Shown: piece after piece, positions 42,417-60,601 of the stretch
Numbering within the stretch: the first letter of the stretch is position 1
How the letters are laid out: each line of letters opens with the position of its first letter
From: Candidatus Omnitrophota bacterium
GTDB lineage: Bacteria > Omnitrophota > Gorgyraeia > 2-01-FULL-45-10
Direction: 5' to 3'
Length of the DNA: 64,000 nucleotides
NCBI GenBank assembly: GCA_903843285.1
Contig: CAIMPC010000057.1
Location: forward strand, 6,456 to 70,455
Made by a program: the position numbers and the translations under genes
The notes under the pieces: model-generated
Told to the model about the DNA's origin: nothing
Seen by the model: only the letters and a program-made list of their open reading frames with translations
Database searches by the model: none

Positions 42417-43047
42417 TATAGATATCTTTGACCTTTTTAAACGGCAGACGATAGATAATATAATTGATTACAAAAGCACCCTGAAGCAGTTTTTCCAATT
42501 CGTGGCGCACGCCCATGAAGACCAAAGGCGTCTCACCTTCTTTCAAGGTGCTTTTAATTCTTTCGGAGATAAAGGCATCCCTCTGTTTCATCAATTTCGC
42601 GCCCTTTTCTCTATATTGATTAAGCGCGTCTCTATAGCTCTGTACGGAAGCGCCGGCCTTACCGATCAACCGGCTTAAGTTGTCATATTCTTCGATCAAT
42701 AAATTCGGGTCTTCGGTCCCTTCCAAGCTGGCGCCATTTTTCAGCAAATCCATGATCAGTCGGTGATTGCGACTGGCCTTTTGGGCTAAAGTTTCGGCTA
42801 TCTCTTTTTCCCTTCCGCAAACAGGCATGGCATCCTGATAGATCCGCATTGTCGGGTACGAGACATGCGTATTCTGAATTTTTTCATATATGCCATCCCA
42901 CATCTCCTTTACGGATTTCTCCTGTTCAGCGGATGAAGCATCGGCAGGCTTTTCGGATTCATCTCCTTTTAAGGAGAGAAGAATTTCGCCCGATTCCTTC
43001 TGAGTATGCAAAACGGGCACATATATCAGGGATCTGATATTATTCAT
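42409..43047 (-). CDS. Tiki/TraB/GumN-like protein (paralog 2).
   Basis: YVPVLHTQKESG, RDAFISERI and GVRHELEKLL mirror the motifs of 40954..41643. Confidence 0.45.
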   Translation of the reverse strand: MNNIRSLIYVPVLHTQKESGEILLSLKGDESEKPADASSAEQEKSVKEMWDGIYEKIQNTHVSYPTMRIYQDAMPVCGREKEIAETLAQKASRNHRLIMDLLKNGASLEGTEDPNLLIEEYDNLSRLIGKAGASVQSYRDALNQYREKGAKLMKQRDAFISERIKSTLKEGETPLVFMGVRHELEKLLQGAFVINYIIYRLPFKKVKDIYNV

Positions 43048-43441
43048 CCTTACCCTTAGAAGCAGCGGCGTCTTTTATTGTCATCATTACCGTTTCGTTA
43101 TTAAATGGCTTGGCCATATACTCATAAACATTCAGATCGGCGGCGTCTCTGATCGTCGCGGCATCACCGTATCCTGTGATAATAATTACTATAACACCGG
43201 GATCTTTTTTTCTGATACGGCGCAGAGTCTCTATACCATTTATTCCCGGCATCTTAAGATCCAGGAGGATGATATCGGGATCTCTCTTCTGGTTTATTTT
43301 TATTCCATCATATCCATTCTGTGCGGTAAAAACAGTATAGCCCTCGGGCTTTAGTATATTTTTAAAAAGCAAACACAGATCCTCCTCATCATCGATTATT
43401 AGAATTTTGGTTTTATTCACAGTCATTATATTTCTCCTCAC
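43040..43441 (-). CDS. Single-domain CheY-like response regulator receiver.
   Basis: KILIIDDEEDL...DIILLDLKMPGING...KPF. 133 aa. Confidence 0.8.
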   Translation of the reverse strand: MRRNIMTVNKTKILIIDDEEDLCLLFKNILKPEGYTVFTAQNGYDGIKINQKRDPDIILLDLKMPGINGIETLRRIRKKDPGVIVIIITGYGDAATIRDAADLNVYEYMAKPFNNETVMMTIKDAAASKGKDE

Positions 43442-45940: not shown

Positions 45941-45996
45941 TCAAAATGAGGCCTGGCCAGATTAGACCTCGCATCGGATCTAACCTGGCCAGATCT
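45941..45996 (-). terminator. Possible intrinsic terminator after the gvpJ-like gene. Imperfect hairpin flanked by an ATCTGGCCAGG direct repeat and followed by a short U-run.
   Basis: On the minus strand: gATCTGGCCAGGttagatccgatgcgaggtctaATCTGGCCAGGcctcattttga. Confidence 0.3.
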
Positions 45997-45999
45997 GAC

Positions 46000-46305
46000 T
46001 TATTTCGCCTTTATCTTCGCTTCCAGATGATCTAATCTCTTTTTCAGCAGCACATTCTCTTTTGCTATCTCATTGTCCTTTGCTTTTGAAGACAGGTAGG
46101 AATCCTGCTGCCACCAATTTATCCCCATCTCCATTGCCTTATCAACTGAGGCGACCAATAACCTTATCTTAATATTGAGAAGATCAATATCGGCAATCTG
46201 GATCTTTATGTCCCCGGCGATCACGATCCCTTTATCTAATACCCGCTCTAAAATATCCGCCAGATTTGTAGCATCGTTGGCATGTATCATCTTTGTGTTA
46301 GGCAT
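46000..46305 (-). CDS. gvpJ: Gas vesicle protein GvpJ-like (GvpA-family core with a C-terminal extension).
   Basis: LADILERVLDKGIVIAGDIKIQIADIDLLNIKIRLLVASVDKAMEMG matches the GvpA/J hydrophobic core. Confidence 0.75.
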   Translation of the reverse strand: MPNTKMIHANDATNLADILERVLDKGIVIAGDIKIQIADIDLLNIKIRLLVASVDKAMEMGINWWQQDSYLSSKAKDNEIAKENVLLKKRLDHLEAKIKAK

Positions 46306-46325
46306 AACACATTCTCCTTTTCTGT

Positions 46326-46607
46326 TTATGCTAGCTTTTTCACTTTTATAATTATATCCGCCGCCCTCTTGCGTAAGCTCGCTATATACCGGCAGTTTTC
46401 ACAATCAATGTTTGCGCTCTTATAGTCCTGGCAGGCAAGCAGTACATCCGCCTCTTTCCGCAGCTCTTCGGCAAATACCGCTTTTCCCACCACTCCCTCG
46501 ATCGCATTGATCTTATTCGTGATATCTTTTATCACCGCCTCCTGCTTTTGAAATATAGCACAGTTTACCTTAGCGCCGTCTTCACGATCCATATTTTCTC
46601 CTCTCAC
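46326..46607 (-). CDS. Small hypothetical protein in the gvp cluster (93 aa, Cys-containing).
   Basis: Tightly packed between gvpJ and gvpK. No recognised motif. Confidence 0.45.
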   Translation of the reverse strand: MRGENMDREDGAKVNCAIFQKQEAVIKDITNKINAIEGVVGKAVFAEELRKEADVLLACQDYKSANIDCENCRYIASLRKRAADIIIKVKKLA

Positions 46608-46939
46608 ATTAAATCTCCTAAGGGCCCTAAATTAATGTTCAATTCCTCATCCTTAAGCCCGAAGATCTCTTTCAAATCCTTCATTTTGTTCTCTAACTTC
46701 ATCAATGTTTCACCGATCCGCTCGACCTCCTCGTCGGTAAGAGAACCCGCCTCTACCCTTCTCATCGCCTGTTTTTCCATTAACTTCCGAATCAGTTCTA
46801 TGAGAGTAAGAACCAGCTTCGCCAATCCCTTCTCCACGTTTTCAGGATTTGCCTCGATCTTTTTAGGCAGCGCATCCTTAACTTTTTCCATCTCGCCGGC
46901 AAAAATCTCGAGAGAATCCGTCTCGATTGTTTTACTCAT
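46604..46939 (-). CDS. gvpK: Gas vesicle protein GvpK.
   Basis: GLAKLVLTLIELIRKLMEKQAMRRVEAGSLTDEEVERIGETL...LNINLGPLGDL matches the GvpK consensus. Confidence 0.8.
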   Translation of the reverse strand: MSKTIETDSLEIFAGEMEKVKDALPKKIEANPENVEKGLAKLVLTLIELIRKLMEKQAMRRVEAGSLTDEEVERIGETLMKLENKMKDLKEIFGLKDEELNINLGPLGDLM

Positions 46940-47739
46940 AGCTGCCTACCATCCTTTTCTTCCGGATATTTGTGTTGCAATATAGTTTCGATCAAATCAG
47001 GCCCGCCAAACTTCCTATCCCCGGAATGACTTAACGTGATAAAATTATACGCCGGCCACGGGCCGCTGAGCATATACTTAAGATCTCCTCCGGAAGAGCG
47101 CAATTCCTCGAACGCTTCCATAAAGTCATCTTTCTTTTTCCTGTCCACCAGATAGGCGGCGCTTAGGAGCAGATTGTCGGTCTTTAATTTTTCGAGTTTT
47201 TTTTCGGAGACGTACCTGTTCAAAAACTCATCTACGATAGAGATGCATCTATCCGCCTCTTCTTCGAACTCTTTGTCTATCTTGTACTTTTCGAACTTCT
47301 CTTTCATGAATTTAGCTCCTGACTGCACGGCGTTCACCGGAGCGCTTTCGTCCTTATGGGCACTTGCTATTCTATCTTTTATGACATTGCCCGCCCAAAT
47401 AACCTTTATGCCGAATTCGCACTTACCGTACACCCGGTCTAAGTTCTCTGTAAAATCCTCATAATGATCTTTCACCCTTAAAAGCATCTCTTCTTTTCCT
47501 GCAAAAACCGTATATAGTCTCATCGGCAGAACGGTGAATCTGTCCATCAGCGCTTCCACGATTTCCTCGTGCTTTAAAACAGACTCTTCGGTTTTGATTT
47601 GGACCTGGGGATCGAGATTACTCACCACTATTCCGATATCGCGATAAGGGATACTATAAATAGGGGCCTCGCATAGTCCCTTATTGGATTCGTCCATCTC
47701 CTTATTAGAATCGATTATGGCATAGACATATAATCTCAT
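46936..47739 (-). CDS. Gas vesicle protein GvpF/GvpL family (paralog 1).
   Basis: YVYAII...GIVVSNL...VLPMRL... and C-terminal SGPWPAYNF. Confidence 0.75.
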   Translation of the reverse strand: MRLYVYAIIDSNKEMDESNKGLCEAPIYSIPYRDIGIVVSNLDPQVQIKTEESVLKHEEIVEALMDRFTVLPMRLYTVFAGKEEMLLRVKDHYEDFTENLDRVYGKCEFGIKVIWAGNVIKDRIASAHKDESAPVNAVQSGAKFMKEKFEKYKIDKEFEEEADRCISIVDEFLNRYVSEKKLEKLKTDNLLLSAAYLVDRKKKDDFMEAFEELRSSGGDLKYMLSGPWPAYNFITLSHSGDRKFGGPDLIETILQHKYPEEKDGRQL

Positions 47740-47742
47740 CTT

Positions 47743-48036
47743 TTACGTCGGCTCCTCGGTTGCGCCAGGCATAGGAGCTCCTCTTAAGTGCTCCATCGTC
47801 TCTACTGAGCTCAAGAGAACCCTTAATCCTAAATATACAAGATCCACATCAGCTACGGAAATAACTATATCTCCGGATATGACTACGCCCTTTGTCAGAG
47901 CCCTATCCAGGATCTCTAAAAGCGTGACCCTTTCCTTCTTACGAAGATCTAAATAGCTTTTCTTATCCTGCGTGGTTTTTATCGGATTATCCATCGTGCA
48001 TCCTTTTATTGTAGGGCAGGCTTTAACTTGTCCCAC
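47743..48036 (-). CDS. GvpA/GvpJ/GvpM-family small hydrophobic gas vesicle protein.
   Basis: LLEILDRALTKGVVISGDIVISVADVDLVYLGLRVLLSSVETME. Confidence 0.7.
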   Translation of the reverse strand: MGQVKACPTIKGCTMDNPIKTTQDKKSYLDLRKKERVTLLEILDRALTKGVVISGDIVISVADVDLVYLGLRVLLSSVETMEHLRGAPMPGATEEPT

Positions 48037-48115
48037 TATCTAATAACCCGAACTGTAGCGCACATTTAAAGATGCGCCACTTCTCACTACATTGAGAGTT
48101 TACAAAAAAAGAAGG

Positions 48116-48919
48116 TTAAATCTGACTTACCTGCTTACAGAAATTATAAGGCGGCCAGGGGCCCGTGCAGTCAAATATCAGCCCCTTATCCGCATATTTA
48201 GCCTTGAGACATGATATAACATTTTCAAACTCTTTGATCCGCTTGCTGCTTATCAAAAACGCGGCGTTTAACACCATATCCTCTTTCTTTTCCGTTACCT
48301 CTTTAGGTAATATATTATTAATCTTAGCATTCACAGCGACTATTTTTAATCTTTCAAAACAGTCCTTTGTGTATTCAGAGATCTTTTCGTTAATGATATC
48401 TTTTACTATCTCTTCCTTTTTCTTCTTTAAAAAGAATGCCTTGCCCGGGCCGGCGGCGAGAATTTCTTTGTCTTGCGCTATGATCCGTTCGTTCTTTGAG
48501 CAAAGGGTATCTTTAAAATATTCACTGCTACAGTATATCTTAAGGCCCCGCTCCTCTTTACCCTCCAGAAAATCCAGCACAGTCTTAAACTCGAGATTAT
48601 TTGCTTTAAGCAATTTTTCTACATTCGCTTTGCACTCAAAAACCGTACCGAATTTAAAAGGCAGCACGGTTTGCTCTTTCATGATCTTCTCTATCACCTT
48701 CTCGTGAAGCCGGATATTTCTCTCCACCCAACTCATGTCGGTCAGATGCCTTTTTAGATTTATCTCACTAAAGTCTTCGGGCGAGACGCTGCTGATAACC
48801 GCGTAAGTCCCCTGAAAATAAACAAGCTCGACCTTAACCCCTAAATCCGCAAAATCATAAGATGGAAGACTATCCTTTGTAACACAGTACAAATAGAGGA
48901 GCTCTTTCACCGCGATCAT
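48116..48919 (-). CDS. Gas vesicle protein GvpF/GvpL family (paralog 2).
   Basis: LYLYCV... and C-terminal TGPWPPYNF. Confidence 0.75.
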   Translation of the reverse strand: MIAVKELLYLYCVTKDSLPSYDFADLGVKVELVYFQGTYAVISSVSPEDFSEINLKRHLTDMSWVERNIRLHEKVIEKIMKEQTVLPFKFGTVFECKANVEKLLKANNLEFKTVLDFLEGKEERGLKIYCSSEYFKDTLCSKNERIIAQDKEILAAGPGKAFFLKKKKEEIVKDIINEKISEYTKDCFERLKIVAVNAKINNILPKEVTEKKEDMVLNAAFLISSKRIKEFENVISCLKAKYADKGLIFDCTGPWPPYNFCKQVSQI

Positions 48920-49179
48920 TCTCCCGGGCTAAGAGTCCCTTTGCGCTCGTAGGATTCTACCTCCAGGTCACCGCTTAGTTTAAGGGCGTATATATTCCTG
49001 TCCTGCACTTTCGTAGAAAGCCCGAGAGACTTGATAAATGAACTCGCTTCAAAAACCTCTGCTTCACATTCCCACCCATCGCCAACCTTTGAGACCTTGA
49101 TCACTGTTACGTCCTTGACGCTGAGGGTCTTCCTTAAAAAATCTATAACCTCTTTTTTCGCACCTTCTATATTGGCCAT
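48916..49179 (-). CDS. Small hypothetical protein in the gvp cluster (87 aa).
   Basis: Translationally coupled (4-nt overlap) with the downstream GvpF/L gene. Family not recognised. Confidence 0.45.
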   Translation of the reverse strand: MANIEGAKKEVIDFLRKTLSVKDVTVIKVSKVGDGWECEAEVFEASSFIKSLGLSTKVQDRNIYALKLSGDLEVESYERKGTLSPGE

Positions 49180-49181
49180 TT

Positions 49182-49424
49182 CTATTCTCCCTCTTCCTCT
49201 TTTGCTTTTCTGATAGCGTCCAATCGCGCCAAAAGTTCCGCTTCCTGTTTATTAAACTCTTGCTCATTGATCTTATCCAGCTCAAATCGCATCTGTAGTT
49301 CCATAAGTTTCTCTTTTATGAGCCCTTCATCAGAAAATTCCTTTTCCACCACATTATCGATCTTTTTAGCCAGCCAAATTATGCCATTTAATGGCGCGAG
49401 TAATATATCATCCAGTAAAAACAT
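49182..49424 (-). CDS. gvpG: Gas vesicle protein GvpG.
   Basis: MFLLDDILLAPLNGIIWLAKKI...LMELQMRFELDKINEQEFNKQEAELLARL matches the GvpG consensus. Confidence 0.75.
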   Translation of the reverse strand: MFLLDDILLAPLNGIIWLAKKIDNVVEKEFSDEGLIKEKLMELQMRFELDKINEQEFNKQEAELLARLDAIRKAKEEEGE

Positions 49425-49425
49425 T

Positions 49426-50196
49426 TTAGTATCCCATCGTTTCGATCACGAGGTTCACAAAATTAAAGGGAGGCAGTGTTCCCACATATTTAAATTTTAT
49501 CTTGTCATCATATTTATCCGCGAGGATCTGAACATTCCGGTCAAATTCCGTTTCATTCGCATTCTCTACCAGAAATGCGGCGCTTATGATCATCAGCTCA
49601 CCATAAGGATTGTTGACCTTCGTATCTTTCGCCAAAGGCGATAGCGTCTCTAAAATCTCCTTCTTGTACATATCCTTCTGTTCCTGCAGGGCGGCTTCGA
49701 CTTTCCTGCCGGCCTCCATACGCAGATAGTAGGTCTTTGCCGGCGGCTCGGATGACAACGCTTTTTTAATTTTCTTAATATCTTCGTAATTCTCCGCTAT
49801 CTCTTTATATATTACGTCTTCCTTGAATATAGCGCGTAAACCCAGTTCTTTTTTACCTTCTATATTTTTTAGCATGCCGGTAAATTTATCATGCTCTTTT
49901 TCCAATATCTTTTTTACTTTATTTTCATCCTGGGCAATGGTGCAAAATCGTACCGGCAAAACCGTATATTTTTTCATTATCTCCTCTATCGCCTTCTCAT
50001 GGGCAAGCATATTCTCTCTCGAGACTGCATAGCTTATTATCGGAGAATTACTGACTACGGCCGCGATATCCTTATAAAGGATGGAATGCAGTTCATCACC
50101 TCGTCCGCCAATCCCGAGAGCTCCAAAGGATTCGGCCTCTTTTGACGCGATAATACAATATATATACTTACCTTCTTTTCCTGCAGTATCCTTCAT
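49426..50196 (-). CDS. Gas vesicle protein GvpF/GvpL family (paralog 3).
   Basis: KYIYCIIAS...AAVVSNS...VLPVRF... and GTLPPFNFVNLVI. Confidence 0.75.
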   Translation of the reverse strand: MKDTAGKEGKYIYCIIASKEAESFGALGIGGRGDELHSILYKDIAAVVSNSPIISYAVSRENMLAHEKAIEEIMKKYTVLPVRFCTIAQDENKVKKILEKEHDKFTGMLKNIEGKKELGLRAIFKEDVIYKEIAENYEDIKKIKKALSSEPPAKTYYLRMEAGRKVEAALQEQKDMYKKEILETLSPLAKDTKVNNPYGELMIISAAFLVENANETEFDRNVQILADKYDDKIKFKYVGTLPPFNFVNLVIETMGY

Positions 50197-50970
50197 CTAC
50201 TTCTCCCACTCCTCAGGATATATAACGATATTGACGAAGTTAAATACGGGTAAAGGTCCCGTATACATAAATTTCACTCTTCTCCCATGCTGTTCGCCCA
50301 GATCGCACATTATATTATCAAACTCTTTCTCCCTGCCTTTATCCACCAAAAACGCGGCGTTCATGAACATCTCATCGCCCACAGTCTTATTGAGCTTATG
50401 ATCAAAGGCTGTCCTCCTCAGCGCTTCTACAATGCCTTCAGCCTCTTTATCTTTCTTCTTTTCCAGAGCCCTCTCCACCATCTTACCTATTTCATTTTTG
50501 GCCTGAATATTTTTTTTACTATTATCTTTCAGAAGCTTCTTTTTTAACAGCTCAATCGCTTTATTCTCATCTACAATTTCTTTGAATATAGCGGGCATAT
50601 TATTCCATATGCCTTTAACACCCAATTCTACTTTATGATCCACGTCACGTAACGCACTCTTAAACTCTCTGTATCTTTTGCTTAGGAGATTTCTTATTTC
50701 ATCGGCGTTTGACGCGATAGTCCCGAACCTTACCGGAAGCACACCGTCAAACTCCTTCATCACTGCCTCGATCACCCGTTCATGTGTAAGCATATTCTCT
50801 GAGTTAACGGTTAATTTAGATAGAGGGTGACTGCTCACGACCATGCTTATGTCGTCATAGCCTATGGTTGAGACATCGTCACCTCTTTCACCTATTCCTA
50901 TAGGCCCGAAACTTCTCTCCTGCGACGAAGCTATAACGCAATATATATACCGTCCTTCCTTCTGTATCAT
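50197..50970 (-). CDS. Gas vesicle protein GvpF/GvpL family (paralog 4).
   Basis: RYIYCVIAS...SMVVSSH...LPVRFGTI... and TGPLPVFNFVNIVI. Confidence 0.75.
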   Translation of the reverse strand: MIQKEGRYIYCVIASSQERSFGPIGIGERGDDVSTIGYDDISMVVSSHPLSKLTVNSENMLTHERVIEAVMKEFDGVLPVRFGTIASNADEIRNLLSKRYREFKSALRDVDHKVELGVKGIWNNMPAIFKEIVDENKAIELLKKKLLKDNSKKNIQAKNEIGKMVERALEKKKDKEAEGIVEALRRTAFDHKLNKTVGDEMFMNAAFLVDKGREKEFDNIMCDLGEQHGRRVKFMYTGPLPVFNFVNIVIYPEEWEK

Positions 50971-52019
50971 TCTCTTACCCTCACCAATATAGGATCGTTA
51001 TTTTGACCTGCCTGCCCGACTGATAATGCTGCATCGGTCAGGCGGGCCTGGTTAAGAGCCGTGCAGTATTCTGTAAGTATTCTGTATGCCCTGTTCACCT
51101 CATCAAATTCTTTTCCGGCGCTGAATGAACCCGGGTTTCTGTCCGGGTGAGTGAAAACCGCCTGCCTCTGATAGGCTTTTTTGACCTCGTCCTTGCTTGT
51201 AATATCGCTTAAGATCCCCAGCCTTTTCTTCGCCCAACCTATATCTTCATTACTTATACTATTCGTCTCGAGGGTATAAAAGCTATAAGGCGGAAGAGGG
51301 CCGATGCACCTGAAATTCAGTCGTTCATTGAATTTGATATTTAGCTCTTCCACCTTCATATCAAAGTCTTTATGCTTAGCTTTATCAATTAGAAAAGCTA
51401 TATTAATTACCATCTTATCATCCATGGGCTCATGTACTTTTAAGGCCTGGCTTACGCTTTTAAGGGTATCTTGTATCTGCTTAGAATACAACTCCCTATC
51501 TCTATCCAACGCGTCTTTGACCATAAGCCCAATCTTCATCTGGTCATCCACGGTTACGCCTCCGGGTGAGGATAAAAGCCGATCCTTAAATTCCCGGATC
51601 TCCTTGCTTTCCCCTATTCCTTTAATGATCGAATAGAAGTCACCCCAAATGGCCGTTACGTCAATCTCGATCCTGTCAGATATTTTAGTGAAGACATCTT
51701 TAATTACAGTATAACCGCATGCCAATATATGTTTAACCTCATCCTCATCTTTGGCAAAGATCCCCAACCTCATAGGAATGATTGTATGGTTCAAACTCAT
51801 GATCTTTTCGATAGCCTTTTGATGTCTCACTAAAAACATAGCTAAAACGTCTTTGCGCATCCGCGTATAATCAACTATTTCAGAATCGCTCACTACAGCC
51901 GAAATATCCCGATAAGAAACGGTATAGACCTCTTCGCAGTCAGTAACCCCGTAAGAGCCAAAGAATACCTCTTTATCAGAATTTAAAACTCCGTAAATAT
52001 ATTTACCGCTATATTTCAT
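50967..52019 (-). CDS. GvpF/GvpL-family domain fused to a C-terminal DnaJ J domain (paralog 5).
   Basis: The N-terminal about 265 aa is GvpF/L-like (KYIYGVL..., IGPLPPYSF). The C-terminus WAKKRLGILSDITSKDEVKKAYQRQAVFTHPDRNPGSFSAGKEFDEVNRAYRILTE has J-domain helices II/III and the HPD motif. Confidence 0.7.
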   Translation of the reverse strand: MKYSGKYIYGVLNSDKEVFFGSYGVTDCEEVYTVSYRDISAVVSDSEIVDYTRMRKDVLAMFLVRHQKAIEKIMSLNHTIIPMRLGIFAKDEDEVKHILACGYTVIKDVFTKISDRIEIDVTAIWGDFYSIIKGIGESKEIREFKDRLLSSPGGVTVDDQMKIGLMVKDALDRDRELYSKQIQDTLKSVSQALKVHEPMDDKMVINIAFLIDKAKHKDFDMKVEELNIKFNERLNFRCIGPLPPYSFYTLETNSISNEDIGWAKKRLGILSDITSKDEVKKAYQRQAVFTHPDRNPGSFSAGKEFDEVNRAYRILTEYCTALNQARLTDAALSVGQAGQNNDPILVRVRE

Positions 52020-52171
52020 GATACCTGTCTTTCAATGCGTGATTCAATTTCACTCGACATCCATAAAAGGCCTAAGCTATTTTTATTCCGGAGTTTTCGT
52101 CTTTTTCCTTAGTACGCCGACTAATAATTTCTTAAAACTGTCCACCAAACCCTTGATTAGGCTTGCCATGC

Positions 52172-54349
52172 TTAAGCCTCCCTTTTCTTTATTATCTTCA
52201 CGGCTTCATCGAAGAATTTTTTCTTTATGGTAAAAGTTTTTAACTTCTCTTCGCTGATCTTGCCTTTTTCTTTTTCCAGAAAATCCCTCATCGAAAGGAT
52301 CGAAGCGCTCCTTACTACCGATTCTATATCCGCGCCGGTAAAATTATCCGCTTCAATCGCTAATTTTTTAAGATCAACGTCGCTGTCCAGAGGCTTTTCT
52401 TTTGTGTGTATTTTATAGATCTCCAGCCTTGTTTTCTCGTCGGGAAGAGGAAGCTCTAAAAGCAGATCGAATCTTCCCGGCCGCAATACTGCTTTGTCAA
52501 CAAGATCCACTCTATTGGTAGCCCCAAGGATAAGCACTCCTTTTAGCTCTTCTATTCCATCCATTTCGGTCAGGAACTGACTGATAACCCGTTCGGATAC
52601 ATGGGAAGCATCTCCGCCGCTTCTGAGAGGGACTATGGAATCCATCTCATCAAAAAATAATATGCAGGGCGATGCCTGTTTTGCTTTACGAAATATCTCG
52701 CGGATTCCTTTTTCGCTCTCGCCAACGTATTTAGACACCAGCTGAGGCCCTTTAATAGAGATGAAGTTAACCCCGCTCTCGCTGGCCACTGCCTTAGCCA
52801 ATAACGTCTTTCCCGTGCCCGGGGGGCCATAAAGCAGGATCCCTTTAGGCGGGTTAGTGTCGGCTTTCTTAAAAAGTTCGGCATATTTTAGCGGCCATTC
52901 CACGGTCTCCATCAGCCGCTTTTTTATATCTTCCAGGCCTCCTACGTCGCTCCATTTGACATCCGGCACCTCCACAAAAACCTCTCTGATCGCCGATGGC
53001 TCAATCTCTTTCATCGCTTCTAAAAAATTATTCATGCCCACTTCCAGCTTCATCAGTGTCTCGTAGGGGATCTCCGCCATTTCAAAATCTATCTTGGGCA
53101 GGATCTTTCTTAAGGCTGACATAGCCGCTTCCCGCGCCAAGGCCTCCAGATCCGCGCCTACGTATCCATGTGTAATCTCAGCCAGTTTCTCAATGCTTAC
53201 GTCTTCCGCTAACGGCATGCCCCGCGTGTGAATCTGGAGTATCTCCAATCTTCCGTTTTTATCGGGGATAGGAATGGACATTTCCCTGTCAAATCGGCCC
53301 GGACGCCTCAGAGCGGGGTCTATTAAGTTAGGTACGTTTGTCGCCGCCATAACAATAACCTGTCCTCTGGATTCCAATCCATCCATCAAAGACAGGAGCT
53401 GAGCTACCACTCTGCGCTCAACCTGTTTCTCCGCGCCCATATCCTCTCTTTTTGGAGCGATGGATTCAATTTCATCTATAAAGATTATTGCCGGGGCATG
53501 AGCCTTAGCGTCTTCAAATAGCGAGCGAAGCCGCTGTTCCGCCTCACCGTAAAATTTCCCCATGCACTCGGGTCCGCTCATACTGATAAAATATGCGTCG
53601 GTCTCATTGGCTACCGCGCGGGCGATTAATGTCTTTCCGCAACCCGGAGGCCCGTAAAAAAACACTCCCTTAGGCGGCTGGATTCCCAGCCTCTCAAATA
53701 CTTCAGGAAATCTTAATGGAAGTTCAACCATTTCTCTGATCCTTTGGATCTGAGTGCCCAGCCCGCCAATATCTTCGTAGGAAATTTTGGCATGTTTACC
53801 TTCCGCCGCTTCTTTATCGTCCGATGCTCTCCCTTTCGTCTCCATCCTTATCAGAGTAGAAGAACCTATTATAACTACTCCGCCGGGGATGGTATCCTCT
53901 ACTTTAAAATCGCACGCCTTGGTCCCGAAGAGAGTAGCCCTGATTTTATCGCCTTTCATAACCGGCAGTCCTGCGACAAGTGACCCGATATACTTAGTAT
54001 CTTGATCTCCCCGCAGCGCAGTGGATGCTGTCAGAGAAGAGAGCGTAATCTTATTGGCAGGCTTAGAATCAACCTTGCGGATCTTCACCTTATCATCCAA
54101 TCCGATATCCGCGTTATCCCTGGCTATCCCATCTATCTGAATGATCTTTTTCCCTCGCTCATCAGCATAACAGGGCATCAGTTTCGCCGCGGTCTTCCTC
54201 TTCCCTTCAATCTCAACGATCTCCCCGACTTCCAGCCCTAAGATTTTTAAATCCTCCGGGTCGATCCGGGCGATTACCCTGCCGACATCTTTTGGCAGAG
54301 CTTCTTTTACTTTCAGAGTCAAGCCCTTATCGTCTTTTTTCGTCGTCAT
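52172..54349 (-). CDS. CDC48/VCP-like AAA+ ATPase (N domain plus two AAA+ modules) embedded in the gvp cluster.
   Basis: Two Walker A motifs GPPGCGKTL and GPPGTGKTL. Walker B DEID/DEMD. SRH regions. An N-terminal double-psi-barrel-like segment. Confidence 0.85.
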
Positions 54350-55284
54350 TGGAATAACCTCCCGGTATATTTATCTAACGCCTCAATGCCTCTAATCTCA
54401 CTGGCTTGTAATGGCAAAATAGTAGTCTTTAAACCGCTAAATTTTCTTCGTATCTGTTTTATATGTTCTTCCTGGGCATCACTTCTTTCCCGGCAAAACT
54501 GACAATCTCTCGACTCTAAACAATTATTCACCAATAACTGTTTTACTCTTATGCCATACCCGTTTAAATCATTTACCAATCTCTCTGTTTCTAAAATTGC
54601 CATATCTTCAGGGATAGTAACTGCCACAAACTCACATCTTTTCCGATCCTTAAGCAGGTCCTCTATCTTTTTCACTGTCTTCTTCATCTCCATCAGAAAA
54701 TCATCGCCTTCGTCAGGATTATACTTGCCGGAAAAACTTTCTACCATGTATCTGTATTTCCATCGCATCTTCGCTAAAACCTTGATCCACTCATCCAAAA
54801 GCTGCGGCAGAGTCAAAAGTCTTAATGCGTGGCCTGTAGGCGCCGTATCCACAATATATTTATCAAATTTTGCCTCATCTATTAAATCTACAATGGTCTT
54901 AAAACCCATAACCTCATCTATGCCAGGGATAGGTAAAGCGAACATAGAATCAACATCTTCCTGGTCTAGATAAGTAGAGGTGTCAAAAATCTTTTTTATT
55001 TGACCCTCGTATTTTATCTTAAATTGTGAAAGAGCTTTTTTTGCGTTTACTTCCAGGGCGCTTAAATTTTTTACCCCTTTTATTTCTCTTATCTCATCTC
55101 CTACTCTTTGGCCTAAGCTATCTGAAACTGAATGCGCCGGATCGGTGGAGATAACTAATGTCTTAAAACCGTTCTTAGCCAAATAAAGACCCGCGCTCGA
55201 GGCGCAGGTCGTCTTTCCCACTCCGCCCTTTCCGCCAAATAATATTAATTTCAACGCGGCTTCTTTTAATCCTGTTAATGCCAT
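54346..55284 (-). CDS. ArsA/Get3-family P-loop ATPase.
   Basis: Deviant Walker [11 protein letters not shown]. ArsA signature [13 protein letters not shown]-terminal CxxC ([10 protein letters not shown]). Confidence 0.8.
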
Positions 55285-55287
55285 CCA

Positions 55288-55857
55288 CTACTTCTTTATC
55301 TTGATCTCTAGCATACCATTGGTATAGGCTGAAGTCATGTTTTCCGTTTTTAACTTCATGGGGAGCAATACCTCTTTATGGTATTTTCTATCGCCGCTGT
55401 GGGCGGATATATCCAGGATGTCTTCTTTTAAATCTAATTTTATATCCTCCTGACTTACCCCCGGCATCTCAGCGTAGATCTTAACATCTTCTTTTTCATC
55501 AAAGAGATCGGTAATAGGCTCTCTCTCCTCATCAATTTTAGGGCCTTTAGGGGTCTTCTTTATGTTGCCGAACGGCTCTACAATGGGCTTGCCGCCTACC
55601 GCGCTCTTTACAGAAAAACCAAACACGCCTTTCATCCCTTTTTTAAGATGACTTAGATCTATTTCGCCTTCTTGTTTGATTTCACCACCCGATTCTTTTA
55701 GCTTTGTAGCGAAGTCGACCAGTTTCTCTATGCCGCTAAATAGCCCTCCTAAACCTATTTTACCCATGCCAAAATCAATATCTAGACCCTCTTTTTTCTT
55801 CTCTCCATCACCATTCGGGCCTCTATTCGATTGTTTCTTATATTTCTCCATTTTCAT
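55288..55857 (-). CDS. Hsp20/alpha-crystallin-domain small heat-shock protein (GvpH-like position in the cluster).
   Basis: ACD C-terminus ...KYHKEVLLPMKLKTENMTSAYTNGMLEIKIKK (A-x-x-x-NG-x-L-x-I). Gly-rich N-terminus. Confidence 0.7.
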   Translation of the reverse strand: MKMEKYKKQSNRGPNGDGEKKKEGLDIDFGMGKIGLGGLFSGIEKLVDFATKLKESGGEIKQEGEIDLSHLKKGMKGVFGFSVKSAVGGKPIVEPFGNIKKTPKGPKIDEEREPITDLFDEKEDVKIYAEMPGVSQEDIKLDLKEDILDISAHSGDRKYHKEVLLPMKLKTENMTSAYTNGMLEIKIKK

Positions 55858-55877
55858 TCCCCCCTTTTATTATACGC

Positions 55878-56258
55878 TTATTTCTTTGGTACAACGCCCT
55901 TCCCTCTACAGGTCAAGCAGGGGAGGTCCGATCCCTTTTCTCTACCTCTGCATTTACATGTCAAACAGGGTTCGGTATCTTCACTGTTTACACTTATCAC
56001 GCCTTTTCCTTTGCAGACAATACACGCAAGAGCCCTATTCGAGAGCGAACGACCTTCCCCGTTGCAATAAGCGCAAATAACCGCCGGCGATGAAACCCTT
56101 ACATTTCCGGCGCCTGAACAGGCAGAACATTGTGTGCTTTTTTTAGAGGGTATAAGCCCCATCCCTTTACAAAATGCACATCTATAGCTCGTCCTATAAA
56201 GAACTTCTCCTCTTTGACCTACTTTCTGGCTTTTCCAATCAAATGTCTTCCAAATCAT
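55878..56258 (-). CDS. DnaJ-type CxxCxGxG zinc-finger (CR-domain-like) protein.
   Basis: At least five CxxC units: CAFCKGMG, CSACSGAG, CAYCNGEG, CIVCKGKG, CLTCKCRG and CLTCRGKG. Confidence 0.65.
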   Translation of the reverse strand: MIWKTFDWKSQKVGQRGEVLYRTSYRCAFCKGMGLIPSKKSTQCSACSGAGNVRVSSPAVICAYCNGEGRSLSNRALACIVCKGKGVISVNSEDTEPCLTCKCRGREKGSDLPCLTCRGKGVVPKK

Positions 56259-56271
56259 TAAAAAATACCCA

Positions 56272-56577
56272 TCAGTACTGCACAGATAGTTTTTTCATGG
56301 GTTTTGAGGGGACTCTTTTACAAGTCTTGACAGTCTGATCCTCACGCACTTCAAATTGCAATTTTTCAATCCGCCTGCATACGGAATATAAAAGTTTTTG
56401 TGCGGTGGTAATCCTTTTGTTCAATACATAGATCTCTTTCTCGAGCCTATCCTTTTCTCTCCCGCTCACATACAATTCCAGGTAAGCGGATCTTTGCGCT
56501 TTGGGCACAGAACTGCCCCCTATAGAATGTATGCTCTTAATATCCCTAACGCTTATTACCCGCTGTATCCCTTTCAT
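56272..56577 (-). CDS. Hypothetical coiled-coil protein (101 aa) in the gvp cluster.
   Basis: Tight spacing between gvpN and the Zn-finger gene. No recognised motif. Confidence 0.45.
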   Translation of the reverse strand: MKGIQRVISVRDIKSIHSIGGSSVPKAQRSAYLELYVSGREKDRLEKEIYVLNKRITTAQKLLYSVCRRIEKLQFEVREDQTVKTCKRVPSKPMKKLSVQY

Positions 56578-56610
56578 ACGGCCTATCTCCCTTCATATCC
56601 GGGAATCTCT

Positions 56611-57678
56611 TTAAACAGCAACAGCTTCTTTTTTTAACTTCTTACTTGCGCCTACAGTCTTTTTGCCGGCGCGTATAGTCTTCTTATTAACTCTACCGGT
56701 TTCTCCATCAGATCCGGAGGCCTTTTTGGCAATACTGATAGTTTTGCCGGAGCTGACTTCTTTTTTAACTAGCTCTTTCACTATCTCTTTCACCCTATCC
56801 TGATTAGTCTTTGAACCGACTCTGCTTGTCTCAGAAGCCAATATGTCCTGACACATCTGCGTAAAAGCCCCATCGGAGCTTTTTATAGGGGTAACGCCCT
56901 GAACTTTAAGGGTCTTGGCGATCATAATACAGCCGCGGACGGTGGGAGCAAATTCACATTTTCCTGACTCTCTTAAACCCCTCACAATATTGACGATCGC
57001 CCCGGAGTGTTGCCTCGAAAGCTTGGACTTTGCCTGAGTGATAGCCACCTCTGTCTCATAGTCAAAGTAGTCCAGGTCCATGGTGATCATTCTGTCCCTT
57101 AATGCGTCCTGGCTCCTGTGAACGCCGGCATACTCTTCGGGATTAGATGTAAATATAGCGTTAAAGTTCGGATCAACCTTTAAATAAGGCTCTTCTCCGC
57201 CTCTGCCCACAGGCAAATCCATCATCTTCTCCTGTAGGATAGAAAGAAGTATGTTATTCGCCTCAGGCCGGGAACGGGTGAACTCATCATAAATCAATGT
57301 GAATCCGTACTTACAAGCGACGGTCAGTCGATTATCCACCCAGTGCTTTACCATATCTTCTTCAGTCTTTAAGACCCTGGAGATAAACCGGTCCACAACC
57401 TTCTTTATCCTGTAACCGTATTCGCCTCCCACCAGATCGGAGGTGGTGAACTCTTCGTCTCCGTGGATCATAACCACAGGCCTTCCGAGCTTACTTGCTA
57501 TATGCATAGCCAGTGTTGTTTTACCGGAGCCGGATATCCCTCTAAAATGGACAGGGAAACCCGCCTTTATATAGGCAAGTGCCCTGACTGTGATATCCTT
57601 TATATAGCCAGTATCCACGAAGTCCGGTAAAGGACTGGGGTCTAATACTGTGGTCATTTCATCAATCATTTTTTTCAT
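56611..57678 (-). CDS. gvpN: Gas vesicle AAA+ ATPase GvpN (CbbQ/NirQ/GvpN family) with a Lys-rich C-terminal tail.
   Basis: GISGSGKTTLAMHIASKLGRPVVMIHGDEEF.... Walker B LIYDEF. C-terminal KKTIRAGKKTVGASKKLKKEA. Confidence 0.85.
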   Translation of the reverse strand: MKKMIDEMTTVLDPSPLPDFVDTGYIKDITVRALAYIKAGFPVHFRGISGSGKTTLAMHIASKLGRPVVMIHGDEEFTTSDLVGGEYGYRIKKVVDRFISRVLKTEEDMVKHWVDNRLTVACKYGFTLIYDEFTRSRPEANNILLSILQEKMMDLPVGRGGEEPYLKVDPNFNAIFTSNPEEYAGVHRSQDALRDRMITMDLDYFDYETEVAITQAKSKLSRQHSGAIVNIVRGLRESGKCEFAPTVRGCIMIAKTLKVQGVTPIKSSDGAFTQMCQDILASETSRVGSKTNQDRVKEIVKELVKKEVSSGKTISIAKKASGSDGETGRVNKKTIRAGKKTVGASKKLKKEAVAV

Positions 57679-58009
57679 CCCTCTTCCTGGATGTTAATGT
57701 TTTATTCATTGCACTCCAGAGCCTATTTGCTTCAACTAAATCGGCACGGATACCCTTTTCCTTCTTCCTGAAATCATCCCTTAAAGAAGAGACCTTTTTG
57801 ATCAGTTCAATTCTATCTTCGCAAAGTCCCGTCTTTAAGGATTTGGTCATCTCCTTATGAACTTTTCTACAGTGGTCCACAAACTTCCTGGCATTGTCCC
57901 TAATGGTTTCTGCCTGCTGCCTTAAATCCTCCATACTTTTCTTTCTATCCTCACGAGCCGTGGTAATGTTGTCACAAAGAGACTTCATACCACTCGATAT
58001 ATTGCTCAT
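57662..58009 (-). CDS. Small coiled-coil protein (115 aa) sharing an N-terminal motif with the two GvpC-like proteins upstream.
   Basis: The N-terminal MKSLCDNITTAREDRKKSMEDLRQQAETIRDNARKFV motif parallels the MKSITENIISSYDARVKGLTDL...ILGNARSAVKGF motif of 58025..58804. Confidence 0.5.
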   Translation of the reverse strand: MSNISSGMKSLCDNITTAREDRKKSMEDLRQQAETIRDNARKFVDHCRKVHKEMTKSLKTGLCEDRIELIKKVSSLRDDFRKKEKGIRADLVEANRLWSAMNKTLTSRKRDEKND

Positions 58010-58024
58010 ACTTGATCTCCTTTA

Positions 58025-58804
58025 CTAGCTCTTTTTTCTTCCTTTTTTCTTTCCGGCCTTTTTCTTGCTCTTCTTCTCGATGGTCTTCTCAACTGAAACT
58101 ATCTCGTCTCCGGCCTCGATTTTAGGCATTACCCCTGTCCCTCTGGATTTGGCCAGACTGGAAGACATACCCTGCCATGCCGATTTTGCCTTTGCTATAT
58201 CCGAGCCATACTCACCCATGAGTTTACGCGTATCACCCAAAAGTTTTCTGACATCGCCGGATATATTACCGACATATTTTGCCAGGCTGCTTCTTAAGGC
58301 ATCTGACATCTCGTTATGAGCCTCGTCAAATTCCTTCAGTTTCTTTTGAGTATAACCTTCTATATCCTTTACCGATTTAGCAAGAGCTGACCTCGTATCC
58401 TCCAACATCTTCTTCTGATCAGCCGACATCTTTTCCCGATCCGCATGTATGACCTTTAACTTCGCGGCAGTGTCCTTTAACTGTGAGGCCACATCTTTCG
58501 CTATGGCCTTAACAAAAGCTGCCAAGTTTGCGGCCTGCTTTTCACTCATCTCTTCATGGTTCGCCTGAAACCCTTTGAGCATGGAGCCCACATTCTTTTC
58601 CAGATCATTGACAAAACCCGCGAGGTTGCCCGCCAGTTCACCGGCCATCTTCTTCCTGTCCTGGGCAAAACCTTTTACTGCCGATCGGGCATTTCCTAAT
58701 ATACTATTCGTATCGGCTGTTAAATCAGTTAATCCTTTCACCCGCGCATCATAAGACGAGATAATGTTCTCGGTGATGCTTTTCATGCTATCAGCTATTC
58801 CCAT
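58025..58804 (-). CDS. GvpC-like repeat protein (about 33-aa F-x3-H-x2-M-S...V repeats) with a poly-Lys C-terminal tail.
   Basis: Units include KGFQANHEEMSEKQAANLAAFVKAIAKDV, KVIHADREKMSADQKKMLEDTRSALAKSV and KEFDEAHNEMSDALRSSLAKYVGNISGDV. Tail is KKSKKKAGKKKGRKKS. Located directly downstream of gvpA. Confidence 0.55.
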   Translation of the reverse strand: MGIADSMKSITENIISSYDARVKGLTDLTADTNSILGNARSAVKGFAQDRKKMAGELAGNLAGFVNDLEKNVGSMLKGFQANHEEMSEKQAANLAAFVKAIAKDVASQLKDTAAKLKVIHADREKMSADQKKMLEDTRSALAKSVKDIEGYTQKKLKEFDEAHNEMSDALRSSLAKYVGNISGDVRKLLGDTRKLMGEYGSDIAKAKSAWQGMSSSLAKSRGTGVMPKIEAGDEIVSVEKTIEKKSKKKAGKKKGRKKS

Positions 58805-58876
58805 TTTGATACCCTCCTTTTTTATCCTTCGACGCGCTTCGCTTTCTCAGGATTAATCCTGAGTTTGTCGAAGGGT

Positions 58877-59662
58877 TTAGCTCACCTGGTTATTTTGTTT
58901 TTTATCGATCTTCGCTTCATCTATATCAATTGTCTTTGGCGAAAAGGCAAGTTTTTGTCTCTGCTTTCCAAAATCCTGGAGCATTTTGGCAACCTCTTCC
59001 TTCCTTTTCTTCTGCAAGCTTATTCTTTCCACGCGTTGGGACTTAATCTTACTGATCATTAATCTAAAGTCCTTTATCCGAAGATTTTCGCCCTTTGCTA
59101 CAAGATCTGTAAGTTGACGAGGTATCTCTTTTTGTTCGCCCTGAAACTCTCTTAATCTGGAAACAATCTCACTCTTTTGCTTTTCCTGTTTGGTGAAAAT
59201 GGTTTTTAGCGCTGACTGCACATGTCTGATTTTTTCTATTTCTCCCCTGGCAATGGCCTCCTTACATTCTCTCAGAGCTTCCTTTAATACTATAGCGACA
59301 CTCCTCTCCTCGGTAAAATATTCCCTTATTAAGTCTTTCACCTCTTCGGCGCATTCTTCCTGGAATGACAGCACGCTAGCCATTATCTTATCGTAATCCT
59401 TCTTCCTCAGGCTGTCATTTTTGGCGAGAAGATCCCTGAGCTGGCTATTAATCTTCTCCTTTTCCGGATTGTTGCCAAGAAGGGACTCCGGAAGGCAATC
59501 AATTAGTGATTGGGAAACCTCAAATACAGAGCTAAGATTCTCTATTCTGGTTTCATAGGAAGCGAGGATATTCTCTACTGTTTCTTTTGTTCCTTTCAGA
59601 TCTGTCACTTCCTGCATAGCTTTATCCACTCCTCTCTTAGAAGGAACTCCTTGGCTAACCAT
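58877..59662 (-). CDS. Coiled-coil protein, third member of the GvpC-like/N-motif family, immediately downstream of gvpA.
   Basis: VENILASYETRIENLSSV motif. The start is set at the ATG at 59662 with an AGGAG Shine-Dalgarno 6 nt upstream. The longer ORF to 59701 begins with TTG. Confidence 0.5.
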   Translation of the reverse strand: MVSQGVPSKRGVDKAMQEVTDLKGTKETVENILASYETRIENLSSVFEVSQSLIDCLPESLLGNNPEKEKINSQLRDLLAKNDSLRKKDYDKIMASVLSFQEECAEEVKDLIREYFTEERSVAIVLKEALRECKEAIARGEIEKIRHVQSALKTIFTKQEKQKSEIVSRLREFQGEQKEIPRQLTDLVAKGENLRIKDFRLMISKIKSQRVERISLQKKRKEEVAKMLQDFGKQRQKLAFSPKTIDIDEAKIDKKQNNQVS

Positions 59663-59724
59663 GCTTTCTCCTGTTTTTACAGGATGAGGATGGCCGGGCA
59701 AGAACCCCTCTTCAACCTTATCCT

Positions 59725-59940
59725 TTAGGCTGCTGTTGCTGTTAAACCAATAGCCTCAGCATACTTCAGATAAGTCTCGACTGACGCCACTACAACTCTG
59801 GCTTCAACCGCGAGGATCTCTATACCAACTAGAGACACCCTTACCCAAGCATCAACCACCACGCCCTTATCCAGTATACGGTCAATAACTTCGACCAAGC
59901 TGGACGAACCAATCGTTTTCTCGACTGCCATGTGAATCAC
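59725..59940 (-). CDS. gvpA: Major gas vesicle structural protein GvpA.
   Basis: [54 protein letters not shown] is the canonical GvpA sequence. GGAGG Shine-Dalgarno upstream. Confidence 0.95.
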
Positions 59941-60034
59941 CCCCCTCCTTCTACAGAATATGCCACTTTTTTACTGGTGAGGAGCGGCCAACCTCCAAAC
60001 CTCCAAACATCCAAAAACTGCTTCTTAAACGTCC

Positions 60035-60226
60035 TTATGTGTCATTAACCCTATCGAGCCAGCTGGACCAACTGGACTTGTTTCTGCTGTCATCCAAAGC
60101 CGCACCGTTTCTTTGCGAATTATGGCTTTGATATAGCTCGAAATTATTCGTGTCATAGTCTTTGCGGCGACTTGCCGCTTTTTTTAATTCACTTCCTTGT
60201 GATCGCTTCAAATTTATTATATGCAT
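60035..60226 (-). CDS. Small hypothetical leader ORF (about 63 aa) between the sigma-54 promoter and gvpA.
   Basis: ATG at 60226 with a GAGGTG Shine-Dalgarno 8 nt upstream. Polar, low-complexity product. Could be non-coding leader instead. Confidence 0.3.
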   Translation of the reverse strand: MHIINLKRSQGSELKKAASRRKDYDTNNFELYQSHNSQRNGAALDDSRNKSSWSSWLDRVNDT

Positions 60227-60275
60227 ACTAAACACCTCTGTTGCCCTTGGACTCCCGACTACATCTTATATACAT

Positions 60276-60291
60276 AGCAACAAGTGTGCCA
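60276..60291 (-). promoter_or_regulatory. Sigma-54 (RpoN) -24/-12 promoter, TGGCAC-N5-TTGCT, oriented toward gvpA.
   Basis: Minus-strand sequence is TATGGCACACTTGTTGCTATG, with the GG and GC dinucleotides at the canonical 10-nt spacing. rpoN and an NtrC-family activator are encoded in the same window. Confidence 0.6.
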
Positions 60292-60303
60292 TACGTGCAT
60301 CAA

Positions 60304-60445
60304 GGGACTGTTGCGAAATGCAACTTCCGTCATTCTGAGAGAGGCCATCGGCCGACCGAAGAATCTGTTTACCTTCGAGATTCTTCACTTCGCCCTTCGG
60401 GACTCGTTCAGAATGACGCGGAATTTGGCATTTCGCAACAGTTCC
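60304..60445. repeat. Hairpin repeat element copy 7 (full length, both terminal inverted repeats), immediately upstream of the sigma-54 promoter.
   Basis: GGGACTGTTGCGAAATGCAACTTCCGTCATTCTGAGAGAGGCCATCGGCCGACCGAAGAATC...GATTCTTCACTTCGCCCTTCGGGACTCGTTCAGAATGACGCGGAATTTGGCATTTCGCAACAGTTCC. Confidence 0.65.
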
Positions 60446-60601
60446 ATACAAGTAGAGCTATAGTCCAAGCTACTAGAAATATGTAGGAATATTTCAACAC
60501 TTTTGTGGGAATTTGCTTACGATTTTTAATATGCTGCGGGGTTCCCGCGTTTATTCGGATCTGTCAGGACAATTAATCGCTTCAGATGTGAATCTAATCG
60601 G

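Follow-up and report, generated by a model that had tools for sequence, protein, structure and literature searches.

The gas-vesicle gene cluster described here lies on a 64,000-nucleotide (nt) stretch of DNA from an uncultivated Candidatus Omnitrophota bacterium (contig CAIMPC010000057.1, positions 6,456 to 70,455), which we refer to as the window. The cluster is encoded on the minus strand, and its upstream region contains a match to the consensus of sigma-54 promoters, which are opened by enhancer-binding activators. The gene for sigma-54 itself (rpoN) and a gene for such an activator are found in the same window. The features from the upstream region to the end of the cluster are as follows, in the order in which they would be read on the minus strand.

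60482..60508, minus strand: candidate upstream activator site (UAS), CCACAAAAGTGTTGAAATATTCCTACA, a conserved block upstream of the hairpin element
60304..60446, no strand assigned: palindromic repeat of 143 nt, a hairpin element resembling repetitive extragenic palindromes (REP) and miniature inverted-repeat transposable elements (MITE), between the UAS block and the promoter
60276..60291, minus strand: sigma-54 promoter, -24/-12 elements TGGCAC ACTTG TTGCT, called from the consensus match and a core that is invariant in a seven-locus alignment
60263..60267, minus strand: predicted transcription start, ~12 nt downstream of the GC cytosine in the -12 element, from standard sigma-54 geometry
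60035..60226, minus strand: conserved 63-amino-acid (aa) protein, first gene of the operon ("leader" open reading frame, ORF), called on 18 contigs and with tblastn homologues
59725..59931, minus strand: gvpA, major gas-vesicle structural protein, 68 aa (Pfam Gas_vesicle; NCBIfam NF006874)
46000..59701, minus strand: remaining, tightly packed gas-vesicle operon (Pfam scans)
45952..45993, minus strand: terminator-like hairpin with a 17-bp stem directly past the last gvp gene (pattern scan only)

A sigma-54-type promoter motif upstream of gvpA

The minus strand reads CACGTA-TGGCAC-ACTTG-TTGCT-ATGTATATAAG, with TGGCAC at 60291-60286 and TTGCT at 60280-60276. The GG and GC dinucleotides of the two elements are spaced by exactly 10 bases within TGGCAC-N5-TTGCW, and the motif lies inside a 366-nt intergenic region, oriented toward gvpA. 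This is the only exact match to TGGCACN5TTGCW on either strand of the window, compared with 0.04 expected from dinucleotide shuffles, and only four of 100 shuffled windows contained any exact match. Scaled by arithmetic to the intergenic region and the correct strand, the chance expectation is ~1e-4. When one mismatch was allowed (10/11), the sole additional match in the window was at 29762-29777 on the plus strand, within a giant ORF. The window scan revealed no further sigma-54 promoters for the regulator genes or rpoN, and no -24/-12 motif was present upstream of rpoN, the PAS kinase or the Cache kinase. A simple scan of 59600-60700 found no sigma-70-like promoter on either strand. Rfam searches of the window and of the leader/hairpin region returned nothing real, the only match being a sub-threshold microRNA-hairpin artefact on the repeat.

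An earlier, sequence-only reading of this DNA had reported an exact sigma-54 consensus with correct spacing, about 50 nt before a short leader ORF and about 330 nt before gvpA. Our measurements agree: the ATG of the leader ORF (60226) is 50 nt past the -12 element, and 345 nt separate the -12 element from the gvpA start codon at 59931. Standard sigma-54 promoter geometry predicts a transcription start near 60265.

The 63-aa ORF begins at ATG 60226 and is preceded by a GAGGTG Shine-Dalgarno sequence. One homologue with 63% identity was found in the protein database, and tblastn detected others directly after the same promoter in three related loci (57% identity in L003, 50% in L020 and 55% in L121; loci recovered in our searches are denoted by L and a number). 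The protein matches no Pfam or NCBIfam family. Because the ORF is called on 18 contigs and its homologues are 50-63% identical, we take it from sequence comparison to be a real, narrowly distributed gene, and not a leader peptide in the attenuation sense. The next gene, gvpA, matches NF006874 with 132 bits against a cut-off of 100, and the minus-strand cluster is densely packed from 60226 down to 46000. The 46000-59701 segment encodes two coiled-coil proteins, gvpN, a DnaJ-zinc-finger protein, Hsp20, ArsA-like and CDC48-like ATPases, five gvpF/L paralogues, and gvpG-like, gvpK and gvpJ/A-like genes; a gap at 48919-49426 is occupied by small genes. The hairpin at 45993-45952 is probably the end of the operon.

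Conservation of the promoter and its proposed regulators

Relatives of the locus were found among contigs with an RpoN homologue (59-79% identity). The rpoN genes of L005, L007 and L089 are divergent and lie beside genes for a PAS kinase, a receiver and an activator, which are followed by gvpA and other gas-vesicle genes. L003 and L090 contain the beginning of the same module and then reach the contig end. In the relatives, the interval from the activator gene to the gvpA operon's first gene carries the sigma-54 consensus, either exact or with 10 of 11 matches. The promoter sequences are:

L005: TATGGCACGGTTGTTGCTA
L007: TATGGCACAGTTGTTGCTT
L089: CTTGGCACACTTGTTGCTT
L003: TGTGGCACGCTTGTTGCTA
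L020: TACGGCACAGTTGTTGCTA
L011 (Candidatus Auribacterota): a variant of the consensus

This promoter core is found at the head of the gvpA operon in L003, L005, L007, L011, L020, L089, L121 and L128. In the seven-locus alignment, GGCA and TTGTTGCT are invariant and the flanks have diverged, with a mean column identity of 58%. The motif is kept at the orthologous position in relatives, L121 and L128 included. The gene that follows it differs: the 63-aa gene comes first in the window, L003, L020 and L121, a single-domain receiver takes this place in L007, L089 and L128, and gvpA itself is first in L005, where the promoter lies only ~125 nt before gvpA and there is no leader ORF. In six loci (L005, L007, L020, L089, L121 and L128), an activator orthologous to that of the window (63-84% identity) adjoins the UAS and promoter, its gene ending immediately before the conserved block. 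The activator next to the L011 promoter is 57% identical to the window's.

A search of genome contigs with GvpA returned 80 loci (L008-L087) from many phyla, including bins of Bacteroidota, Planctomycetota, Lentisphaerae, Ignavibacteria, Nitrospirae, Actinomycetes, cyanobacteria and others. Across this range, GvpA proteins share 82-97% identity with that of the window, a conservation too high to single out close relatives; we therefore used the 80 loci for an enrichment test. Motifs with at least 10 of 11 matches, and with GG and GC fixed, were counted in the 700 nt upstream of gvpA, and the rest of the same loci served as background. The sense strand contained 13 motifs, compared with 0.54 expected (~24-fold enrichment; Poisson P = 3e-14), and the antisense strand contained none. 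Approximately 26 of the 80 loci have a gene for a receiver-AAA+-helix-turn-helix (HTH) activator directly upstream of gvpA on the same strand, among them Bacteroidota, Ignavibacteria, Syntrophaceae, Cloacimonetes and Spirochaetales bins. Because the motif is enriched and activator genes lie upstream in so many loci, these sequence data suggest that control of gvpA by sigma-54 and an activator is a widespread design across bacterial phyla.

In the window, the regulators lie beyond the hairpin at 45993-45952, in the order dCache kinase, first receiver (REC1), three unassigned proteins, PAS kinase, second receiver (REC2), activator and rpoN:

43570..45825, minus strand: histidine kinase 1, dCache-HAMP-PAS-HisKA-HATPase (Pfam)
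43040..43441, minus strand: single-domain receiver, REC1 (Pfam)
38363..40744, minus strand: PAS histidine kinase 2 (Pfam)
37723..38433, minus strand: receiver with N-terminal extension, REC2 (Pfam)
36335..37726, minus strand: sigma-54 enhancer-binding protein with receiver, Sigma54_activat (AAA+) and HTH_8 domains (Pfam and motifs)
34909..36213, minus strand: rpoN, sigma-54 (three Pfam sigma-54 domains, TIGR02395, RpoN box)

The sequence-only reading had named rpoN, the activator, two histidine kinases and two extra receivers, and domain scans bear out each assignment. The protein encoded by 36335-37726 is an AAA+ enhancer-binding protein with GAFTGA at residue 218, the Walker A sequence GESGTGK, an intact Walker B motif and the acceptor residue Asp52. 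Its only NCBIfam matches are generic, NtrC/AtoC-like and below cut-off. The product of 34909-36213 has the activator-interacting, core-binding and DNA-binding domains of sigma-54, the last with an RpoN box (ARRTIAKYR), and scores 413.6 bits against the TIGR02395 equivalog cut-off of 277. RpoN homologues from Candidatus Omnitrophica/Omnitrophota are all ~430-450 aa, and a short RpoN is thus typical of the lineage. In L003, L005, L007, L089 and L128, PAS kinase 2 again accompanies REC2 and the activator as a conserved partner, and relatives also keep REC2 immediately upstream of the activator gene. The adjacency of rpoN to the kinase-receiver-activator module is likewise conserved. The window holds the same genes in rearranged form: 22 kb lie between activator gene and promoter, and rpoN follows the activator gene with only half a hairpin element between them.

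None of the seven rpoN homologue contexts showed the classical lptB-rpoN-hpf (lptB/hpf/ptsN) housekeeping arrangement. L088 shares its right-hand flank with L089 and retains rpoN, with neither the regulators nor gvp genes. Because L088 keeps rpoN without gvp genes, rpoN is most likely the resident sigma-54 gene beside which the gas-vesicle module sits, and it is probably the only copy.

Several relatives have a sigma-54 consensus (TGGCACAAATGTTGCT) before rpoN, and its -12 element overlaps the -35 element of a sigma-70-like promoter, TTGCTA-16-TATAAT. The sites, all on the plus strand, are:

L003: 6963-7000
L004: 147-162
L090: 1084-1125
L005: 9784-9825

This overlapping layout suggests negative autoregulation of rpoN. 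The kinase-receiver-activator operons of L089 (9842-9857, minus strand) and L090 (968-983, minus strand) also have a sigma-54-type promoter of their own, followed immediately by 8-10 GCAA tetranucleotide repeats in a row where the start is predicted. Such a run might serve the regulators as a phase-variable switch that is prone to slippage. The window has neither the site before rpoN nor the kinase-operon promoter.

Three consecutive minus-strand proteins without a Pfam or NCBIfam match lie between the two-component pairs (40954-41643, 41640-42416 and 42409-43047); the first is paralogous to the third (32% identity, E = 7e-27). By tblastn, homologues of these proteins occur within gas-vesicle loci of other phyla (L012, L041, L049, L057, L071, L080 and L084), and they may form an undescribed gas-vesicle-associated family. 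Upstream of the PAS kinase, a short minus-strand ORF at ~40782-40907 (MLGIDLETLRKKNNLAQEDLADSLAVLCQAVCM) resembles a truncated XRE-type HTH protein, and the corresponding place in L005 is taken by an 82-aa HTH_3 protein. A sigma-70-like site, TTGACA-17-CAGAAT, is found at 40937-40909 of the window.

The candidate activator site and the hairpin element

Upstream of the hairpin element, the block at 60508-60482 consists of three half-sites, YYAC-N6-GTWG-N8-YYAC, which form two overlapping palindromes; the window version is CCAC-N6-GTTG-N8-CTACA. The pattern YYAC-N6-GTWG-N8-YYACA matches the window once, at this position, compared with 0.02 expected. It is present at the expected place in L003, L005, L020 and L089, and the conserved block was found in all Omnitrophota-type loci examined:

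Window: CCCACAAAAGTGTTGAAATATTCCTACA
L003: CCCACAAAAGCGTAGAAAGAGACCTACA
L005: CCCACAAAAGTGTAGAAATAATCCCACA
L020: TCTACAAAAACGTAGAACCAACCTTACA
L089: CCTACGGTTCTGTAGGATTTTTCCTACA
L007: a version with four half-sites

The block is 137-219 nt upstream of the -24 GG in L003, L005, L007, L020 and L089. Measured distances from UAS to promoter were 137, 138, 166, 208, 218 and 219 nt, and ~60 nt in L121, and they share no common helical phase. A metagenome scan seeded with 18 nt from the UAS block alone returned 80 loci, mostly random matches. The full block was present in three of them, and all three have an exact TGGCACN5TTGCT downstream. Of these, L095 is the window sequence again, obtained from a different sample. 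The other two, L121 and L128, add new contigs, each with an activator of ~79-80% identity upstream and either a leader homologue or receiver-gvpA downstream. In the window, the block has stayed with the promoter although the activator gene is 22 kb away, and it is therefore tied to the promoter and not to the 3' end of the activator gene. The activator HTH segment, GGNKTKAA.ILKIDRTTLYSKIKEFQ, is nearly identical among block-bearing loci and different in distant ones, and the Omnitrophota UAS motif was not found in the distant activator-bearing gvpA loci L011, L012, L048 and L049. Together, these comparisons make 60508-60482 a better candidate activator site than the hairpin element, and a site to which the activator may bind. 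Two of the distant loci have lineage-specific inverted repeats of their own between the activator gene and the promoter, TATGGAA..TTCCATA in L012 and TGACA..TGTCA in L048.

The hairpin element stands between this block and the promoter. The copy at 60304-60446 is full-length, 92% complementary to the copy at 34696-34838, and stops 12 nt upstream of TGGCAC, in agreement with the sequence-only description of a promoter abutting a full-length element. It is a near-perfect palindrome with a predicted folding energy of -71.7 kcal/mol (z = -7.7). The window contains three full and at least four partial copies; copies or fragments were counted in ~6 of the 13 intergenic regions that exceed 100 nt, and the giant ORF contains two. 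Dispersed and mostly intergenic copies, terminal inverted repeats and a stable hairpin are features of REP/MITE-like elements. By blastn, the family is confined to contigs of the same genome (L001 and L002) and absent from the other loci (L003-L090), and no such element was seen in the spacer sequences read from L121 and L128. The UAS-promoter spacer is 191 nt in the window, or 48 nt minus the element, compared with 43 nt in the element-free L121. The element thus looks like an insertion into a spacer that was originally ~45 nt. Such an insertion of a mobile repeat 12 nt upstream of the -24 element would have shifted the enhancer from about -90 to about -235, and it would have been tolerated because the activator acts at a distance, in the manner of an enhancer. 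In L005, the equivalent spacer contains a GC-rich hairpin repeat of another family (CGTCATTGCGAGGAG...CCTCGCAATGACG) at ~4985-5085 on the minus strand. We read it as an independent insertion into one of few long non-coding targets, though a role in bending or spacing is conceivable.

Two ORFs contain hairpin-element sequence. The giant ORF (window 633-30692, minus strand; 10,019 aa) reads in frame through a full element at 27304-27487 (...GTVAKDNFRHSEEGQRSTEESKNEILPRSARQDDGRS...), and a second copy or fragment lies within it at 1962-2039. A lipoprotein-like signal, MVIGATLFISGCG, follows immediately past the 27304-27487 element. Because the in-frame element is followed by this signal, the giant gene may start near 27290, with the upstream ~1,100 codons being separate. 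On the JGI contig L001, gene calling splits this region into 401 aa plus 9,616 aa. A 284-aa ORF at 60954-61808 (minus strand) has an N-terminus (MSEILRSADGLPQNDG...) that is a translated hairpin-element fragment (61747-61816); its true start is probably Met35 (~61706), which opens the lipoprotein signal MCKLKTVLASLLMVGVCLSLVSCG.

Proposed mechanism, alternatives and known systems

We propose that 60291-60276 is a functional sigma-54 promoter for the gas-vesicle operon, driven by the activator module encoded in the window, and give this reading a probability of roughly 0.8. It is strongly supported because the promoter core and an adjacent orthologous activator are conserved in diverged loci. 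This conservation likewise favors the enhancer-dependent, signal-gated transcription that the sequence-only reading had suggested. A transcript of ~14 kb would run from near 60265 to the hairpin at 45993-45952, covering the 63-aa gene, gvpA and some two dozen gas-vesicle genes. Sigma-54 RNA polymerase would wait at the promoter as a closed complex, which would open only after the activator had been phosphorylated by the conserved PAS histidine kinase (38363-40744). The adjacent receiver and the Cache kinase/receiver pair would probably add or modulate inputs. The activator would most likely assemble on 60508-60482 and loop over the 191-nt spacer to the holoenzyme, where ATP hydrolysis would drive opening. 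The motifs, domain content, conservation and gene linkage were observed directly; from sequence and gene arrangement we infer where transcription starts, how far the operon extends and where it ends, that the activator binds the block, and which proteins exchange phosphate.

Several considerations weigh against this proposal. The relatives share ancestry, and counts of conservation among them are non-independent events. The UAS pattern was derived from the same relatives in which it is counted, and of the evidence for it, only its recovery from metagenomes is semi-independent. The UAS-promoter spacer varies from 43 to 202 nt across loci with no common helical phase. The census of rpoN and activator genes covers a 64-kb window of the genome. 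The start site and operon extent are predictions, and the kinase-receiver pairing is putative.

We considered whether the motif could be fortuitous or vestigial, with gvpA transcribed from an unrecognized sigma-70-type promoter located, for instance, within the leader ORF or downstream of it. A consensus match by itself is no proof of function, the 345 nt between promoter and gvpA could conceal another start, and Omnitrophota sigma-70 promoters are uncharacterized, so that a simple scan could miss one. Yet the chance expectation for this region and strand is ~1e-4, eight diverged loci share an invariant core, among them L005 with its short distance to gvpA, and the sense-strand motif is strongly enriched upstream of gvpA across phyla; we regard a chance match as very improbable. 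A genuine sigma-54 promoter could instead respond to another enhancer-binding protein encoded elsewhere, with the regulatory block in the window serving other targets. The 22 kb between the activator gene and the promoter would fit this arrangement, as would the persistence of rpoN in L088 without gvp genes nearby. In addition, the activator scores below every specific NCBIfam equivalog cut-off, so that its target is not readable from its family. In L005, L007, L020, L089, L121 and L128, however, the activator gene ends right before the block and promoter, and the activator HTH is nearly identical among these six loci. A different activator is therefore improbable.

The sequence-only reading had speculated that the hairpin element supplies the activator site through GTTGC-N5-GCAAC palindromes in its terminal repeats. 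The exact 15-nt palindrome does exist at 60310-60324, once in the window with 0.01 expected, at the promoter-proximal end of the 60304-60446 copy. The distal end of this copy reads GTTGCGAAATGCCAA, and other copies have GTTGTATTTCGCAAC or GTTGTCTTTCGCAAC, so that the perfect palindrome is peculiar to one end of one copy and arises from a single base difference. Its center is ~27 nt upstream of the -24 GG and ~50 nt from the predicted start. The element directly adjoins the promoter, and L005 has a hairpin repeat of a different family in the equivalent spacer; but adjacency says little, because copies or fragments occur in so many of the longer intergenic regions. Moreover, the family is missing from all relatives that have retained the promoter and an orthologous activator whose HTH is conserved, and the other copies (downstream of rpoN, in the giant ORF and in other intergenic regions) have no sigma-54 motif nearby. 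With a separate conserved block upstream, we give the genome-specific element almost no credence as the activator site and retain 60508-60482 as the candidate.

A broader interpretation is that Omnitrophota rpoN forms part of a conserved gas-vesicle module, comprising rpoN, PAS kinase, receiver, activator, UAS, sigma-54 promoter and gvpA, and that these small-genome bacteria have an autoregulated sigma-54 circuit whose principal output is buoyancy. The sigma-54 sites that relatives have before rpoN and before the kinase-receiver-activator operon would belong to this circuit. The window's circuit would then be a rewired one, with rpoN behind the activator gene and a repeat within the enhancer-promoter spacer. 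We hold this interpretation only tentatively and consider it unlikely on balance.

The sigma-54 promoter reading provides a concrete regulatory model for buoyancy control in uncultivated Omnitrophota, comprising a promoter, candidate enhancer site, activator, kinases and sigma factor. It opens no new kind of mechanism or principle. The repeat insertion would be a natural example of the range over which a sigma-54 enhancer can be displaced. The survey suggests that gvpA is under sigma-54 and activator control in many bacterial phyla (Bacteroidota, Ignavibacteria, Syntrophaceae, Cloacimonetes, Auribacterota and Omnitrophota) and that such control is not a peculiarity of Serratia or the proteobacteria, a point of use when foreign gas-vesicle clusters are expressed as acoustic reporters.

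Compared with NtrC/glnAp2-type promoters, the window shows the same canonical GG/GC spacing, an activator with receiver, AAA+ (GAFTGA) and Fis-type HTH domains, and candidate palindromic sites placed tens to hundreds of nt upstream of the promoter. It differs in that YYAC-N6-GTWG-N8-YYAC is unlike NtrC and NifA sites, the spacer carries a 143-nt palindromic repeat, and no IHF-type site was identified. The repeat resembles REP, MITE and bacterial interspersed mosaic elements (BIMEs) in its multiple, mostly intergenic copies, both full and shortened, its terminal inverted repeats and its very stable hairpin. Unlike them, it is genome-specific in the data searched, has no Rfam match and includes two copies or fragments in frame within the giant ORF. 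The haloarchaeal GvpE/GvpD system works by an entirely different mechanism, in which archaeal promoters are the targets of a bZIP-like activator and its antagonist, and the window has no gvpD or gvpE homologues.

The closest parallel is the gvpA1-gvpY cluster of Serratia sp. [quoted passage not shown] An rpoN transposon mutant of this strain loses gas vesicles and transcription of the gvpA1 operon (PMC11778176). Operons led by gvrA have been described as common in proteobacterial gas-vesicle clusters. Both loci have a sigma-54 consensus before the first gvpA, an NtrC-family activator encoded in the locus and extra regulators in the cluster (GvrB and GvrC, probably a kinase and a receiver, in Serratia; two kinases and two receivers here). 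The window's activator is a candidate counterpart of GvrA, and the Omnitrophota system is a prediction from sequence. The window differs in its lineage, in the linkage of rpoN to the module, in having two kinases and two extra receivers, and in the 63-aa gene before gvpA; no quorum-sensing repressor input is evident in it. Our full-text literature search found no description of sigma-54 gas-vesicle control in Omnitrophota. As an idea, though, sigma-54 control of gvpA was not new when the sequence-only reading proposed it, having been established with GvrA and gvpA1 in Serratia (PMC4982088, PMC11778176). The design is already known from that organism, and what is mildly new here is the candidate enhancer motif, the conserved linkage of rpoN and the repeat in the spacer.

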